Source: Acutalibacteraceae bacterium (GTDB lineage: Bacteria > Bacillota > Clostridia > Oscillospirales > Acutalibacteraceae). Taken from it: a stretch of DNA of 64,000 nucleotides. The DNA is taken from positions 26,882 to 90,881 of the forward strand of contig JAZNGB010000042.1 in the NCBI GenBank assembly GCA_045576275.1, given 5' to 3'. The position numbers and the translations under genes are program-made. Shown one piece after another: positions 31,131-39,511 of the stretch. How positions within the stretch are numbered: position 1 is the stretch's first letter; every line of letters begins with the position of its first letter. The notes beneath the pieces are model-generated. The model saw nothing but the letters and a program-made list of their open reading frames with translations. It did no database searches and was not told where the DNA came from.

Positions 31131-31604
31131 ATGGCAAAGAGTGTGCATGAAAACACCGTTGCAACCAATCGTCAGGCTTATCATGAATATTTTGTCGTAG
31201 AAACCCACGAAGCCGGTATTGAGCTTTGCGGCACGGAGGTCAAATCCATCCGCCAGGGCAAACTCAATCTCAAGGATTCCTATTGCATGGTCGAAAACGG
31301 CGAGCTGCTGCTGCACGGTATGCATGTTTCCCCTTATGACAAGGGCAACATCTTCAACCGTGACCCGATGCGTACCCGTAAGCTTTTGATGCACAAAAGG
31401 GAAATTATGCGTCTGTTCGGTCTTGTCAAGCAGCAAAGCTATGCCATCATTCCGCTGTCTGCCTATTTTGTCAACGGTAGATTGAAGATTGAAATCGGAC
31501 TTTGTAAAGGTAAAAAGCTTTACGATAAACGTGAAACCGCTGCCAAAAAGAGTGCCGAGCGTGATATTGAGCGCTCCTTCCGCGGCAACAAAAGTGATTA
31601 TTGA
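31131..31604 (+). CDS. smpB: SsrA-binding protein SmpB
   Basis: NRQAYHEYFV.E..EAGIEL.GTEVKSIR and TRKLLMHKREI, immediately upstream of tmRNA. Confidence 0.95.
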   Translation: MAKSVHENTVATNRQAYHEYFVVETHEAGIELCGTEVKSIRQGKLNLKDSYCMVENGELLLHGMHVSPYDKGNIFNRDPMRTRKLLMHKREIMRLFGLVKQQSYAIIPLSAYFVNGRLKIEIGLCKGKKLYDKRETAAKKSAERDIERSFRGNKSDY

Positions 31605-31664
31605 TTATTAAGCCGTAAAATGGCATAATAATATATACGGGTTCGGAGTATCTCCACCCCACAT

Positions 31665-32019
31665 GGGGATGAAAGGATTTCGACGGGGATTCTGAGCACC
31701 GATAAGCGGGCAGAGGTGCGGTACCTCTTTAAACTTCCGCAAGTTTAGAAATAAACGACAATAACAATACTGTACTCGCAGCTGCCTAAGTGCAGTTGCC
31801 GTCTTTCCCGAGAGCACCGCGGCTCGGTGTAAAGGCGTCATGCAGCGGTGAACGTGCACAGGGAAGCGCCTCATATCCTGTCATGCACAATGGGGCTGTC
31901 CAAAGGCGGAGGGTGTCATTTCCCGCCGTCCGCGGAGAGAACTAAATAAATGACTGCGCCCGGAGAAGGTCGATGTAAAGGGTTTTCGGACAGGGGTTCG
32001 ACTCCCCTCATCTCCACCA
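31665..32019 (+). ncRNA. ssrA: Transfer-messenger RNA (tmRNA)
   Basis: 5' GGGGAUGAAAGGAUUUCGACGGGG and 3' GGGGUUCGACUCCCCUCAUCUCCACCA. The internal tag frame ends ...NDNNNTVLAAA-TAA (stop at 31787-31789). Follows smpB. Confidence 0.95.
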
Positions 32020-32022
32020 TGA

Positions 32023-32060
32023 AAAGCAGAGCGGCACCTACAGGTGCCGTTCTGCTTTTT
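32023..32060 (+). terminator. Rho-independent terminator of ssrA
   Basis: 16-bp stem aaagcagagcggcacc / ggtgccgttctgcttt followed by a T-run. Confidence 0.85.
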
Positions 32061-32161
32061 ACTTTGATATAAAGAGGGGAGTCGAAGCGGCGCGGGAGTG
32101 AATGACAGTCCGGTGGACTGTCAGAGCCGCGCCTGACCGAAGCCGCGCAGCGCGGCAAGAG

Positions 32162-32183
32162 TCGACTCCCCTCATCTCCACCA
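32162..32183 (+). repeat. Exact 22-nt direct repeat of the tmRNA 3' end (att-like)
   Basis: tcgactcccctcatctccacca occurs at 31998-32019 and again at 32162-32183. Confidence 0.9.
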
Positions 32184-32242
32184 AATAAGAGTCAGTCGAA
32201 CACTGACTCGCTCACACGGAACGTTGTTCCACCAAAAAGAGA

Positions 32243-32273
32243 AGCACCGCAATTGCGGTGCTTTTTGCTTTTT
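32243..32273 (+). terminator. Rho-independent terminator-like hairpin
   Basis: Stem agcaccgc / gcggtgct followed by tttttgcttttt. Confidence 0.7.
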
Positions 32274-32282
32274 GCCGGAATC

Positions 32283-32470
32283 CAATCCGAAGGATTGGTA
32301 TGTAATCGCCGCAGGCGTATGTAATCAGAGAAGCTGCATGGCATCACCGCAGGTGTATGCATCCTTCGGATTGATTACATACATTTTTTTGAAAATACAA
32401 AAAAATGATTACATACCGAAACTCCGTTTCGGATTCCATACATTTCCTTGGGGAAATGGTTACATGCATT
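32283..32470. repeat. Cluster of short direct and inverted repeats (GTATGTAATC / GATTACATAC)
   Basis: GTATGTAATC at 32298-32307 and 32317-32326. The inverted copy GATTACATAC at 32373-32382 and 32407-32416, with degenerate copies near 32431 and 32458. CCGCAGG(C/T)GTATG occurs twice. Three small ATCCGAAGGAT-type hairpins. Confidence 0.6.
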
Positions 32471-32803
32471 TTCTTACGAAAATGATTTATACAACACTGC
32501 GTGTCGATTGCATAGCGCCTGACGGCGGATGGCGTTTGATTCTTCACCGTGAAGATGGACATCTGACAAAAAGACAAGAACCAAGGTTAGAATCGATTTC
32601 TTCTTCGGCTGGTATAAAAAAATAGGGAACAAACTGACTTGAAATGAGTGCGATTTGTTCCCTGAAAAATTGCGCTATTTTACACAAGGCAGATTGGAGG
32701 AACGTTAATGTACCTTAACTTTAATTGCCGATATAAAAGTACGGCTTAGAGAAAAGTTTACATCATAGGACTTTGTCCTATGATGTAACAAGCAGGGGAA
32801 CTA

Positions 32804-34096
32804 TTATTCCGAATCACAATATAAGCTATCGTACCAGTGGACGTAAATATCGCCATTGACTGTCAATCGTTCGTTTTCGGGACAGAGCTCCGTCCAAAGC
32901 TTACCGTATCGGCCGAAGCCCCAATCATTACGGTTGAATCTGCGCCAAAGCACCGTTCTGCCGTCTTTATCGATATACTGTTCGGTCACGATCTTTGAAT
33001 CTGACGGATACACGCAGAAAAGGCATATCGTATCATACTTGTTTTTGCCGACAGTAACCATATATCTTCCGAGCACATCCTCAACAGGATACTGTTTTTC
33101 GGTGCAGGTGATAATGCTGCTGTCTCTGACAATTTCTCCTTTTTTCTCAAGATGTATTTTTCTTCCGCAGTTGTCCTCACCGAATCCCCAGTCGTCGCAG
33201 AAGTCATCACCGTCAAGAAACGTCCGCAGATGATATACTCCGTCGTCGGTCTGTCCCTGAGCGAGAAATCTGCATCGGGCATCGGTCAGTTGAGCGAACA
33301 GATCCATATTATTATACTCCGGCGCACTCTCGTTTCTGCAAAGCTCAGACGACTCAACACTTTTCATCAGGCAAGATATCCGAACACCACGAATACCGTG
33401 CATCTCGACTTCGTTTTCGACCTTCAGCTCGTGAAGATCCAGCATTTTACCGGAAGGCGCATCATAATTTCCGAATACGATATGCTCTCCGAGCCTCGGT
33501 ATGATAAACCAACCCGGTAACTCTTTACATACCGCTTCAAACGGTTCATTATCGGATTTGACTATTGAATAATCAGGCATTATTGGCGGTAAGTTTTTCA
33601 TAAATGCTTCTCCTTTTTGTTGCATACAGTACGGATATGATTCCTTGAATTTCAGTTTTGCGTTGTGAAGGCGGCTTTTGACCGTACCGAGAGGGATTCC
33701 GAGACGCTTTGAGATCTCCGCTTGCTGTATATCCATCAGATAGTACATATTAAGTATCTGACCGTATTTTTCGTCAAGAGCATCTATTGTTTCGGCAACG
33801 GCGCTCTGTCCGGAAATACCGTAAATACTCATAGAAACGGTTTCCACATCGATATTATCAAAAGATACTTCTGCACTTTTCGCTTTGGAACGGTAATAAT
33901 CGTTGCACTTGTGCCGGGCTATGCCGATAAGCCACGGCTTGAAATTGCTTATGTCGTTCAAAGAAGAAAAATTCTGAAAAGCCGCAAGACAAATCTCCTG
34001 AATAACATCCTGAGCATCTTCACGGTTTCCGATCCGGAATGTCACAAACCGTTCGAGCGGTCGGTAGTTATCATGAAGAAGATCGTCGAAATCCAT
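32804..34096 (-). CDS. ECF-type sigma-70 factor fused to a roughly 260-aa uncharacterised C-terminal domain (paralog A)
   Basis: Region 2 (DAQDVIQEICLAAFQNF...FKPWLIGIARHKCNDYYR) and region 4 (ISKRLGIPLGTVKSRLHNAKLKF). The long C-terminal extension has no hydrophobic TM segment. ATG at 34096 has RBS gaggtg. Confidence 0.8.
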   Translation of the reverse strand: MDFDDLLHDNYRPLERFVTFRIGNREDAQDVIQEICLAAFQNFSSLNDISNFKPWLIGIARHKCNDYYRSKAKSAEVSFDNIDVETVSMSIYGISGQSAVAETIDALDEKYGQILNMYYLMDIQQAEISKRLGIPLGTVKSRLHNAKLKFKESYPYCMQQKGEAFMKNLPPIMPDYSIVKSDNEPFEAVCKELPGWFIIPRLGEHIVFGNYDAPSGKMLDLHELKVENEVEMHGIRGVRISCLMKSVESSELCRNESAPEYNNMDLFAQLTDARCRFLAQGQTDDGVYHLRTFLDGDDFCDDWGFGEDNCGRKIHLEKKGEIVRDSSIITCTEKQYPVEDVLGRYMVTVGKNKYDTICLFCVYPSDSKIVTEQYIDKDGRTVLWRRFNRNDWGFGRYGKLWTELCPENERLTVNGDIYVHWYDSLYCDSE

Positions 34097-34161
34097 CGCC
34101 GTCACCTCGCTTTCGTATGTGTTATGAAATCGATTTCACATACATGGTCGCACCTGCGACG

Positions 34162-34172
34162 CAAAAGGTTCA
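34162..34172 (-). promoter_or_regulatory. Candidate ECF-type -35 element TGAACCTTTTG upstream of sigma-fusion paralog A
   Basis: An identical 11-mer lies upstream of paralog B (61172-61182) at almost the same distance from the ATG (65 vs 61 nt). GAAC is followed 16-17 nt later by CGAC. Confidence 0.4.
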
Positions 34173-34274: not shown

Positions 34275-35906
34275 TTATTCAATCGTCACGTTTTCACAGC
34301 TTTCGATGTGCACGGGGTTTTCTGCGCAGGTGCGGATGGTGTTATTGCGGATGTTGACGCCGTCGGTGTTGCGGATGAAAATGCCGGGCTTGCCGTTGGC
34401 GCACTCGATTTCGTTGTCCTCAATGACGATATTGTAAATACTGCAGCCCTTTGCGTGGTCCGCATCCGCCTTGATGACGATGCCGCAGGCTTCGCCCCAG
34501 GTTTCGGCGCAGTTGTAAATTTTATTCCCACGAATGGTGATGTTTGCAGGGCAGACACCCTCATACCACCAGGCTTCGGCAGCTGCAACAATGGCAGGAC
34601 CCATGACATCCCGGAATGTGCAGTTTTCGACAAGAGCATCGCGGTTTTTCAGCAGGATGCTGCGTGCAAAGTGACGGGTTGCGGTGCAGTTCACAAGTTC
34701 AACACGAGGTAAGCGTGTGATATCGGACAGAACAAGGTCTTGTGTATCTGTCGGCAGGGGGGGATCCAGCGTGACTTTGCACTTCCATTCGTCATGTAAG
34801 GGGACACAATCGACAACCGTGTAATGTCCGACGGTCTGCAGGGTGTTTTTGTCGGTCAGTTCGAGTGTGTCGCAGATGTCGGGATAGTCAAGGGTCTGTG
34901 CGTGGGTGCCGTCGGGTGTTTTTTCCTGCATGATGCAGGTGCATTCGTCTTCACGGTTGATGATTGCCTGATAATAGCTGTGCACGTTGGTGAAGTCATC
35001 GCCCTGACCGTCAAAAATGCAGTTTTCAAACCGCAGCAGACCTTTCATGGATGTAAAATGGGTTGCATCGGTGTTGGTAGACATATGATGCCCCTCGGAC
35101 GGAATGACCCGTAAGCCGCTGATGATGACATCTTCGCTTCGGTTGCCGACAATGCCCATGCCGGGTTGGCTGTGAATCGTGATGTCGGTGAGGCGGATGT
35201 TTTTGGCGTTTTCAATCAGGATGCCCGGTCGGGAGTGGTAGGTATGGGCGGTGTAAAACAGCATACCGTCACGCATAGGCTCTGCTTCGTCGAGCGTTGC
35301 TTTTATGTGGTGTGCATCCAAAAATGCATAGCTGTGAATGCTGGCATAAACATTGTGACCGGTTTTTTCATCATAGAAAATATAGCGCAGTTTTATGGAT
35401 GTCTTTTCGCAAATCGGACAATCCGGGTCAAATTCGATCACGCATTCGCGTTTCCCCTCGGTATCGACAGGCTGCAAACCTGTGACCTTGCCCCGGCTGT
35501 ACGGCTTTCGCAAATGGTCAATGGTGAATCCGCAAAGCTGAATGTCTGTGCTGTTGACAATGGAAATCGGCTCCATGAAGCCTTCAACCAAAAACAGTGC
35601 GCCGTTTGCAATCACACGGGTACCCCGTTGACCGTCAAAGCGGATACCGCAATCATACTGATATTTGGGGTGGAACATCGTTCGCTGCGGATTTTCTCCC
35701 CATTCACCGCTTAAAACGGAGTGCATTGCACTTTTGGCAAGATTGCCGGTTATATGGTATGTGCCGGGTGGGACAATCAGCGTGGTGTCGGGATGTTCAC
35801 GGCAAAATGACATCGCAGCTGCAAATTTTTCCATATCGGTTGCAGCTGGAAAATCGGTCAGATGTATGGTATTTATATTCGTTTTCAAGTTCATTGCGTT
35901 CAACAT
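34275..35906 (-). CDS. Right-handed parallel beta-helix (pectate-lyase fold) glycosidase-like protein, no signal peptide
   Basis: N-terminus resembles the Pectate_lyase_3 type (HLTDFPA...LIVPPGTYHI). Repeated NCxF / I.I.NN.I beta-helix rungs toward the C-terminus (NIVIEDNEIE, IRNNTIR). Confidence 0.75.
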   Translation of the reverse strand: MLNAMNLKTNINTIHLTDFPAATDMEKFAAAMSFCREHPDTTLIVPPGTYHITGNLAKSAMHSVLSGEWGENPQRTMFHPKYQYDCGIRFDGQRGTRVIANGALFLVEGFMEPISIVNSTDIQLCGFTIDHLRKPYSRGKVTGLQPVDTEGKRECVIEFDPDCPICEKTSIKLRYIFYDEKTGHNVYASIHSYAFLDAHHIKATLDEAEPMRDGMLFYTAHTYHSRPGILIENAKNIRLTDITIHSQPGMGIVGNRSEDVIISGLRVIPSEGHHMSTNTDATHFTSMKGLLRFENCIFDGQGDDFTNVHSYYQAIINREDECTCIMQEKTPDGTHAQTLDYPDICDTLELTDKNTLQTVGHYTVVDCVPLHDEWKCKVTLDPPLPTDTQDLVLSDITRLPRVELVNCTATRHFARSILLKNRDALVENCTFRDVMGPAIVAAAEAWWYEGVCPANITIRGNKIYNCAETWGEACGIVIKADADHAKGCSIYNIVIEDNEIECANGKPGIFIRNTDGVNIRNNTIRTCAENPVHIESCENVTIE

Positions 35907-37851: not shown

Positions 37852-38409
37852 GTGTATGACGGGCATATCAGTGCTCTGTGGTGAAAGTCCACCGAGGCGT
37901 AGTTACCGACGAACTCAAAAGCGACTCCCAAGGTTTGCATCGTGAGGTGTAGGCGAGAAGAAGGGATAGCGAAATCGTAGCCTGACGAACAGAAACTCGG
38001 TACAAAGGCGAAATAGGCGGATAAGTTGGCCCAAAGCAACGAAGTCCAAAAGGTAACCGTAACCCTATTGCGTAAACCGAGCAGGTAGACGAGGAAAGAG
38101 TATTGGTTTATCCCGTGAGGTCTCATAGACAGAGAAATCTGTAGTAACAACGAACTATGAGAAGTCAGCAGAGGTCATAGTACCGAGAAATCGGGAAGGA
38201 CCGAACAGTTCAATATCACATATAAAAAGATGTTCTGCTTGGAATTGATATGTAAAGTAGTTGAAACGTATATGATACCAAATACAGGAAGTCTTAGATT
38301 AGAATAAGCGGAAGCGTTGAAACAAATATGAGATTGCGAACTGAACCGCCGTATGCCGAACGGCACGTACGGTGGTGTGAGAGGAGGGAGAAAATCCCTC
38401 CTACTCGAT
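37852..38409 (+). mobile_element. ORF-less class IIC (bacterial class C) group II intron, about 558 nt
   Basis: The 5' end GUGUAUGACGGGCAU...GGUGAAAGUCCAC aligns with the Oceanobacillus iheyensis IIC intron as I recall it. The recalled match includes GAAGUCAGCAGAGGUCAUAGUACC...GGAAGGACCGAACAG. Domain V is GAACCGCCGUAUGCCGAACGGCACGUACGGUGGUGUG (38343-38379), with a compensatory GC pair relative to the remembered O.i. sequence. Domain VI is a hairpin with a bulged A, and the 3' end is ...CUCGAU. The domain IV region is only about 130 nt and has no ORF. Confidence 0.85.
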
Positions 38410-38500: not shown

Positions 38501-39511
38501 ATGCAAAAGCTTTGGTTGCTGCGACCTGCACATTTTTGTGTGGACTTTGCCTGTGCATTTCTGTGTATGGGATATGCGGAGAATAACATTCAGTTTTATT
38601 TGTTGCTTTATAATTTTTGTGCGTTCGCATTGCAGATGCCTTTGGGGCTTCTTGTTGATCGTTTCGGTAAGCAGATCAAAGTTGCCGGTGTCGGCACGGC
38701 TTTAACGGGGCTTGCCTTGCTTTTTCCGAGCAATCCGCTTGTCGGTGTCATCATTGCAGGTGTTGGCAATGCCCTTTTTCATGTCGGTGGCGGTGTGTAT
38801 GTGCTGCACGGTTGCAACAACAAATGCACCCCCTTGGGACAGTTTGTGGCACCCGGTGCGATCGGTTTGTTTTTTGGCGGCTTGTGTGCTTCGGAATTGT
38901 ATTATATCCATCCTCTTGTGATGTTCGTTTTGTTCGTCTTTGCCGCTGTTTTTCTGTTTACAAAAACTGAGGATGCAGCAATGGCGACCGATGTTACCTT
39001 GCAGCCTATGCCGAAAAAGGCAGGCTTGGCACTCGTGTTGCTGTTTTTGGTGGTGGTGTTGCGATCGGCGGCAGGCTTTCAGTTCACCTTTTCATGGAAA
39101 ACAGGCTCCACTGCATTGCTGTTTGCCTTTGCTGTAATGGCAGGAAAGGAGTTGGGCGGTGCATTGTCTGATCGTTTCGGAATGACCAAAACAAGCCTTG
39201 TGTCGTTGCTTGTCGGTGCCGTACTGTTTGTTTTTTCGGGCGACAGTGCTGTTTGCGGCATACTTGCTGTGCTGTGCTTCAACTGCACCATGCCCGTGAC
39301 TTTGTTTGCTGCTTATAAAATCGTTAAGGGATTGCCCGGATTTTCTTTCGGTCTGCTTACATTTGCCTTGTTTTTGGGGTTGCTGCCGTCTTATTTCGGT
39401 TTTTCCATGCCTGATTCTGCTGCAGTGTTCGGTGTCGGTGCTTGTGTGCTTTCACTTTTGCTGCTATTGCCGGGCTTGCATTTTGCAAAAGCGGAGCGTG
39501 ACACGGCATGA
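38501..39511 (+). CDS. MFS-like multi-pass membrane protein
   Basis: About 10 hydrophobic segments. Duplicated motif-A-like loops GLLVDRFGKQ and GALSDRFGMTK. Confidence 0.6.
   Translation: MQKLWLLRPAHFCVDFACAFLCMGYAENNIQFYLLLYNFCAFALQMPLGLLVDRFGKQIKVAGVGTALTGLALLFPSNPLVGVIIAGVGNALFHVGGGVYVLHGCNNKCTPLGQFVAPGAIGLFFGGLCASELYYIHPLVMFVLFVFAAVFLFTKTEDAAMATDVTLQPMPKKAGLALVLLFLVVVLRSAAGFQFTFSWKTGSTALLFAFAVMAGKELGGALSDRFGMTKTSLVSLLVGAVLFVFSGDSAVCGILAVLCFNCTMPVTLFAAYKIVKGLPGFSFGLLTFALFLGLLPSYFGFSMPDSAAVFGVGACVLSLLLLLPGLHFAKAERDTA

Follow-up and report, generated by a model that had tools for sequence, protein, structure and literature searches.

An Extracytoplasmic Function Sigma Factor Fused to a Conserved All-Beta Domain in Gut and Rumen Clostridia, with a Putative Internal Translation Start

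How is a sigma factor of the extracytoplasmic function (ECF) type controlled when no anti-sigma gene lies beside it? The question is raised by a gene at positions 32804–34096 (minus strand) of a 64,000-nucleotide (nt) stretch of DNA from an Acutalibacteraceae bacterium (contig JAZNGB010000042.1 of assembly GCA_045576275.1, positions 26,882 to 90,881 of the forward strand). This whole stretch is referred to below as the window. A sequence-only reading of the window had described the gene as an ECF sigma factor fused to a large cytoplasmic C-terminal domain that might serve as a built-in regulator or sensor in a single polypeptide. Here we analyzed the gene, its relatives and their surroundings. 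The explanation that we favor, with a probability of about 0.55, is a self-contained ECF sigma module that regulates itself, with the cognate cytoplasmic partner fused to the sigma factor and supplied as a free protein as well.

Organization of the Fusion Gene

A single open reading frame (ORF) without interruption occupies positions 32804 to 34105 of the minus strand. Its true start is the ATG at 34096, and the product is 430 amino acids (aa) long; the GTG at 34105, upstream of this ATG, falls within the Shine-Dalgarno (SD) sequence. The gene encodes an ECF sigma factor and a soluble C-terminal domain of about 265 aa in one ORF, with the following parts:

32804–34096, minus strand: full ORF of the sigma–domain fusion, 430 aa, stop codon included in the coordinates (ORF reading, Pfam, family search and alignment)
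34102–34108, minus strand: SD sequence GAGGTGA preceding the main start codon, as read in the window itself; the same position in homologues has GGAGGTGA
33881–34078, minus strand: sigma region 2, aa 7–72
33650–33802, minus strand: sigma region 4, aa 99–149
33609–33616, minus strand: internal SD sequence AAAGGAGA, within codons K162-G163-E164 (sequence reading and family comparison)
33599–33601, minus strand: internal ATG (Met166), 8 nt after GGAG, predicted start of a free 265-aa domain (conservation of the Met; start of the split genes)
32807–33601, minus strand: C-terminal all-beta domain, aa 166–430 (AlphaFold2 model of the domain)

The protein belongs to the ECF (group 4) sigma-70 factors. 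As had been proposed for about the first 170 aa, regions 2 and 4 were both recognized by Pfam above its cutoffs (PF04542, Sigma70_r2, 48.7 bits against 24, E = 6.7e-13; PF08281, Sigma70_r4_2, 45 bits against 25.7, E = 8.3e-12), and region 2 was modeled with a predicted local distance difference test score (pLDDT) of ~90–97. No Pfam match to region 3 was found in the 430-aa protein. The ECF superfamily model TIGR02937 of NCBIfam was passed with 80.2 bits (cutoff 42.9), and the PDB entries matched by the N-terminal part, by sequence as well as by fold, were ECF sigma factors only. The closest named NCBIfam models were those of SigZ, with scores far under their cutoffs (NF007215, 84.9 bits against 212; TIGR02959, 81.1 bits against 168.65). 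These scores, together with an extension of 265 aa instead of a short Cys-rich tail, exclude the protein as an orthologue of SigZ or a member of group ECF238. When the neighboring genes were checked with Pfam, no anti-sigma-like gene was revealed beside the ORF, as the sequence-only reading had also noted.

Putative Internal Translation Start at the Domain Boundary

At the boundary between the sigma part and the domain the window reads AAAGGAGAAGCATTT ATG (33616–33599, minus strand). We compared this region in 35 family genes from different species, which are 35–97% identical (median 52%). All 35 genes have an SD core 5–15 nt before the boundary ATG, whereas of the 262 other in-frame ATGs that they contain only 28 have one (Fisher P = 1.5e-28). 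The mean energy of the duplex with the anti-SD sequence was -11.7 kcal/mol for the boundary ATG and -3.7 kcal/mol for the other ATGs, and the spacing between SD and ATG is canonical (7–9 nt).

The linker residues encoded at this site differ between genes (KGE, KGV, KGA, RGD, NGG, MEG, GGE, EGV), yet GGAG is retained. Synonymous positions are also fixed: the Gly codons of the linker are GGA in 37 cases out of 37 (background 27%, P ~1e-21) and its Lys codons are AAA in 25 out of 25 (background 58%). In an alignment of 63 members, at least 90% of the sequences keep Met166. The internal SD and ATG were also found in fusions that are 26–31% identical (L041, L043, L045), and they agree with the ribosome binding site and start codon of the split gene pairs described below.

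The internal SD and ATG are under selection. Since they are kept in 35 out of 35 genes with their synonymous sites fixed, the free domain is probably also translated, being made alongside the fusion from the internal start. The earlier view of a single polypeptide is therefore probably incomplete: the fusion ORF is real, but it is unlikely to give a sole product, because the conserved internal SD and ATG point to a free domain too.

The C-Terminal Domain Belongs to a New Family

The extension of about 260 aa contains no hydrophobic segment (highest Kyte-Doolittle mean over 19 residues, 0.66), and the eight motifs that had been listed for it are all found, at aa 169–423. AlphaFold2 modeled the domain alone with a pLDDT of 93.3 and a predicted template modeling score (pTM) of 0.91, as ~18 strands with three short helices only.

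No family was found for the domain alone in Pfam (E up to 10) or NCBIfam (E up to 1). A profile built from 28 diverse members gave no match to the domain among PDB sequences; the domain model had no Foldseek match in PDB below E = 1e-3 and no match in the viral structure library BFVD. The best fold matches in PDB were YmcC-like 3fzx, 4fvs, LolA-like 9tp6 and 3bk5, and also 3m4w and 3mh8, with RseB and LprG included. All of them were weak (template modeling score, TM, 0.23–0.42 with 0.42 the best; E of at least 1.7e-3; root mean square deviation 8–15 Å), and as far as the model goes the domain may be at most a remote relative of open beta-barrels; we assign it to no known fold. The all-beta domain is a new family.

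Several described types of regulatory domain were considered and rejected. A SnoaL-like extension of the ECF41 type gave no Pfam match at E up to 10, and SnoaL-like folds were absent from the matches of the domain model; the ECF56 structure 7qh5 matched the full-length model weakly (E = 1.5e-3, TM ~0.2), was absent with the domain-only model, and by sequence matched the sigma part alone. An extension of the ECF42 type, built of TPR, is rejected by the all-beta fold in a model of pLDDT 93 and by the lack of a Pfam TPR match. The statement of the sequence-only reading that the extension is unlike SnoaL and TPR proved right, with neither a Pfam or NCBIfam family nor a PDB relative found for it. 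Anti-sigma domains of classes I–III were rejected as well, since the helix type that they require (a bundle of 3–4 helices, with or without HxxxCxxC) is missing from the model and no anti-sigma match was found with Pfam. This result does not exclude an anti-sigma-like function.

Distribution and Conservation of the Fusion

A search with the C-terminal 270 aa retrieved ~990 clusters at 90% identity, nearly all of them proteins of ~427 aa with N-terminal regions 2 and 4. In an exhaustive search 342 clusters at 50% identity matched the domain, and again nearly all were sigma fusions of ~427 aa. The matches in named genomes (more than 35) all came from metagenome-assembled genomes of gut or rumen Clostridia; the carriers belong to Oscillospiraceae, Lachnospiraceae, Acutalibacteraceae, Monoglobus and Christensenellales. 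The window protein recurs identically on an independent NCBI contig of 328 kb. No viral contig was found to carry the domain: all 58 viral-contig matches are confined to the sigma part, and no link to phages was found.

The 63-sequence alignment contains 53 invariant columns, and most of these fall in the extension, the better conserved of the two parts. The motifs WGFGEDNCG, GRTxLWRRFN and YVHWYD contain invariant Trp, Gly, Asp, Asn, Arg and Glu residues. Residues P170, P174, E192, Y211, H233, D295, R385, H420 and D423 are conserved throughout the superfamily and are candidates for a binding site. The fusion frame is maintained, all linker indels being in frame and free of stop codons. Loci were scanned on the basis of alignment A1, alignment A2 being too diverse for this. 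Across the genomes surveyed the fusion is thus conserved, with no conserved neighbors among 40 loci.

Split Genes and Fusions to Other Modules

Distant homologues of ~270–280 aa are genuine separate genes. Four of the five standalone homologues that were checked (P0269, P0205, P0215 and P0247) lie directly downstream of an ECF sigma gene of 180–184 aa on the same strand; the two genes are 15, 12 and 1 nt apart in three of these pairs and share 8 nt in the other.

Natural splits occur within the close family as well. Two diverged metagenome loci from different samples (L103 and L185, 96.7% nucleotide identity) contain a sigma gene of 155 codons ending in KFKETY and a TAA stop. One base (T) later follows, in another frame, the ATG of a domain gene that begins MKNNSLPEYLPEY (protein MKNNSLPEY), and the SD of this gene (AAGGAGA) is located within the last sigma codons. 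Its start Met corresponds to Met166 of the fusions. Split and fused states are therefore both seen within one family. True standalone domain genes were revealed only in the more distant relatives and in these two loci; the candidates P0081 and P0181 (254–261 aa) were rejected as contig-edge fragments starting at the internal Met, 15–24 nt from the contig end. It should be mentioned that the sigma factors of the distant split pairs are 27–31% identical to the window sigma factor, no closer than generic ECF sigma factors (27–35%), so that common descent of the sigma parts is not demonstrated.

The domain was also found in other company. In P0178 and P0220 it is fused to an XRE module (HTH_3, E ~1e-15) and in P0190 to a CD3324/Mor-like module (NCBIfam, 92.8 bits against a cutoff of 65). 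The N-terminus of P0209 is similar to that of P0190, but its Pfam Mor match is sub-threshold (17.4 bits against 24.9). The position directly after an ECF sigma gene (+1, translationally coupled) is typical of anti-sigma factors. Because it is attached to three unrelated DNA-targeting modules and otherwise stands at +1 after ECF sigma genes, the domain behaves like a sensor or regulatory partner. The role of built-in regulator or sensor once proposed for it is plausible on these grounds.

Promoter, Leader and Terminator

The following elements surround the ORF:

34147–34172, minus strand: ECF-type promoter with -35 TGAACC (34172–34167), a 16-nt spacer and -10 CGAC (34150–34147), found by pattern match and family conservation
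34125–34138, minus strand: leader palindrome TGAAATCGATTTCA (TGAAAYCGRTTTCA), immediately downstream of the -10 element and close to where transcription is expected to begin, found by covariation in family leaders
32758–32788, minus strand: terminator-like hairpin lying 16 nt beyond the stop codon, with a stem of 14 pairs and then a T-rich tail

The promoter is the sole match to the pattern in the 64 kb of the window (0.03 expected). Of 36 family loci, 33–34 have TGAACCTTT-N13/14-CG(T/A)CTATAT at a distance of ~70 nt before the start codon (~0.2 expected). We infer that this promoter is used by the gene's own sigma factor. With its own promoter and terminator, the gene is a monocistronic and presumably autoregulated unit.

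At least 6 of the 7 pairs of the palindrome are complementary in 69% of 78 unique family leaders, as against 2.6% of shuffled controls. The two halves change symmetrically; at the second pair from the center, for example, CG was found 48 times, TA 13, GC 7 and AT 4. The palindrome may be an operator or a 5' stem-loop: the symmetric central bases favor a DNA site, and the G-T often found at pair six, counted from the center, would fit a G-U pair in RNA.

In ~555 kb of family loci the promoter was found upstream of family genes only. In a metagenome promoter scan, family genes made up ~75 of 120 among the matches listed, and among the same listed matches the combination of promoter and palindrome was not found before any non-family gene. 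A relaxed promoter match at window position 2321 was rejected as due to chance, as it lies antisense within a 520-aa ORF. The same -35/-10 consensus was observed in seven metagenome loci (L098, L126, L138, L159, L186, L187, L195) before an unrelated conserved leader, GATGAGGACGGAGACTTGGGACCACG. The loci with the GATGAGGACGGAGACTTGGGACCACG leader contain an 81-aa ORF starting with MGPRI, apparently a different family of ECF-controlled small proteins.

Possible Mode of Action and Alternative Explanations

If the locus is a self-contained module, transcription would start at its own ECF-type promoter and end at its own terminator, and the ORF would give two products, the 430-aa fusion and the free 265-aa domain made from the internal ribosome binding site and Met166. 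In other lineages the all-beta domain has a gene of its own that overlaps the 3' end of an ECF sigma gene or is translationally coupled to it, where an anti-sigma factor is usually encoded. The domain may bind sigma2/sigma4, within the fusion in cis and, when free, in trans. In this way it could gate access to RNA polymerase, with an inhibitory or an activating sign, in response to a putative cytoplasmic ligand. A single gene would then encode a sigma/anti-sigma (sensor) switch under positive autoregulation. Regulation is not attributable to another local regulator, since neither a conserved neighbor nor an anti-sigma gene was found. More tentatively, and at somewhat less than even odds, one ORF may hold the complete sigma/anti-sigma (sensor) switch, fusion and free sensor being produced side by side, with a hitherto unrecognized all-beta class of ECF partner that also serves XRE and Mor-type regulators and with the ratio of tethered to free copies setting the threshold.

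Several points weigh against a self-contained module of this kind: (i) internal initiation is deduced from the nucleotide sequence alone; (ii) apart from the gene's own promoter, the 64-kb window, the ~555 kb of family loci and the metagenome scan revealed no target; (iii) the fifth standalone homologue, P0212 on an Armatimonadota contig, has no sigma neighbor; (iv) the full-length AlphaFold model has a pTM of 0.58 and low-confidence linkers, and no docking on sigma2/sigma4 can be read from it; (v) to our knowledge, the anti-sigma domains described are all helical, while this domain is all-beta; and (vi) its strongly conserved polar residues would also suit an enzyme.

Some of these points fit a different explanation, in which the domain is the output of the system rather than its regulator: an enzyme or a binding ("sponge") protein driven by the sigma factor, with the fusion or operon merely ensuring co-expression. 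The gene's own promoter is the only strong one found, which leaves the domain as the only visible product; polar and aromatic residues are very highly conserved; a copy without a sigma neighbor exists (P0212); and there is the remote fold likeness to open barrels that carry ligands (LolA, LprG, YmcC-like; TM of 0.42 or less). We nevertheless consider it unlikely. Fusions to ECF sigma factors, XRE and Mor-like modules signal a regulatory or sensor domain and not an effector, and the translationally coupled +1 location after ECF sigma genes is typical of anti-sigma factors; moreover, a positively autoregulated sigma factor without a regulator would have no input.

Alternatively, the fusion could be the sole product, and the internal SD and ATG could be a relic of a two-gene ancestor or a translational pause site. 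A relic is conceivable in a family that switches between split and fused states, and internal initiation has been deduced without direct observation. A relic would, however, decay at synonymous sites, yet GGA and AAA are kept in 37 of 37 and 25 of 25 codons. GGAG persists despite amino acid changes in proteins 35–97% identical and in subfamilies 26–31% identical, Met166 is found in at least 90% of the sequences, and the SD spacing of 7–9 nt is canonical. All this makes such a relic or pause site quite improbable.

Finally, an assembly or annotation artefact joining two genes over a missed stop or frameshift, an objection that the sequence-only reading had itself raised and for which the rare split relatives (L103, L185) might speak, can practically be dismissed, because many independent assemblies, represented by ~990 clusters, and more than 35 named genomes contain the same uninterrupted ORF, no linker indel breaks the frame, and the identical protein is encoded on the independent 328-kb contig.

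Relation to Known Sigma Factor Systems

At least 26 ECF groups with N- or C-terminal extensions are known, 15 of them unstudied (PMC8999054). In ECF41, ECF56, ECF205, ECF294 and ECF295 a SnoaL-like extension acts in cis on sigma2, sigma4 or the linker (PMC8999054, PMC3426412). The fusion resembles ECF41 and the related groups in having a soluble C-terminal extension in place of a separate anti-sigma factor. Unlike theirs, which are of 100–150 aa, its extension is all-beta and ~265 aa long with no SnoaL match by Pfam or fold; in other lineages it is encoded by a downstream gene of its own, and in the fusion it keeps a putative internal translation start. In ECF42 a cytoplasmic TPR extension of ~200 aa is needed for regulation and there is no anti-sigma factor (PMC8999054). 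The large cytoplasmic extension and the lack of an anti-sigma factor are shared with the present fusion, whereas TPR are all-helical and the domain described here has ~18 beta strands and three short helices. ECF238 (Bacillus subtilis SigZ; Myxococcus CorE and CorE2) also lacks an anti-sigma factor and is regulated via a C-terminal extension (PMC7826278). The SigZ models are the best NCBIfam matches of our sigma part, but the extension of ECF238 is a Cys-rich tail of ~20 aa and not a folded domain of 265 aa. The locus would function in the manner of ECF groups that carry an extension, yet it is a member of none of ECF41, ECF42 and ECF238, since the defining extension of each was looked for and not found.

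One further group deserves mention. ECF262 (example SFB89493.1, Ruminococcus albus) is an unstudied group of Clostridia with an extension whose mechanism is undescribed (PMC8999054, Table 2). Compared by group name and accession alone, it might be equal to the fusion family.

The split relatives resemble the SigW-RsiW, RpoE-RseA and RpoE-ChrR operons in that the partner gene is directly downstream; a further likeness is the presumably autoregulatory ECF promoter of the sigma gene. In the split pairs L217 and L218 the partner gene abuts the sigma stop codon or overlaps it, an arrangement suggestive of translational coupling. In contrast to the classical operons, the partner has no helical anti-sigma domain, zinc motif or membrane helix, and in Clostridia the loss of the sigma stop codon has joined the sigma factor and its partner in one ORF. 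An origin of extensions by fusion of a downstream gene was proposed previously (PMC7671368), and the natural series of split and fused genes would show an extension arising from a downstream partner gene.

The ECF literature that we searched contains no report of an extension keeping its own translation start. We know of no sigma factor with an internal start that frees its regulatory extension. In-frame internal starts yielding a free C-terminal domain are reportedly the subject of Meydan et al. 2019 (Mol Cell), with ArcB-C, CheA-short and IF2-beta of E. coli as examples. As in these proteins, an SD and an ATG lie within the ORF at a domain boundary, the start in the fusion genes being predicted from conservation only. 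A sigma gene may encode both tethered and free copies of its regulator. If confirmed, such an arrangement would be a new way of organizing sigma factor regulation. It would also provide a compact orthogonal part for synthetic circuits, with promoter, sigma factor and regulator in 1.4 kb. The partner domain is new, abundant in gut and rumen Clostridia, and, having neither an annotated family nor a solved relative, well suited to structure determination and the search for ligands.

Genes Around the Fusion

The neighbors of the fusion gene in the window are genes for a GH28-like beta-helix protein, a methyltransferase, tmRNA, smpB, argS, a DUF1934 protein and dnaX. The GH28-like right-handed beta-helix protein (34275–35906, minus strand; 543 aa) has no obvious N-terminal signal peptide. 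It is specific to the window genome and is not kept beside family genes elsewhere. When the neighbors at 40 loci were clustered, no gene family was found to recur beside the fusion genes, apart from a generic ABC exporter in 8 of 40. The suggestion that the domain senses carbohydrates, which rested on the glycosidase neighbor, is not supported, as this clustering shows the neighbor to be unconserved.

Downstream of the fusion gene, the stretch 31131–32757 contains smpB (31131–31604), then the tmRNA gene (31665–32019, 166.9 bits) and then ~740 nt with no recognizable gene; an ORF located there (32224–32625) gave no Pfam match. Integration commonly takes place in the 3' flanks of tmRNA genes.

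Pieces of a group II intron were revealed at 37936–38409 on the plus strand (Rfam RF02001, 121 bits; RF01998, 52 bits; RF00029, 48 bits). No long ORF for an intron-encoded protein was seen near them, and they resemble an ORF-less or degenerate group II intron, located just upstream of an MFS-like ORF at 38501–39511.

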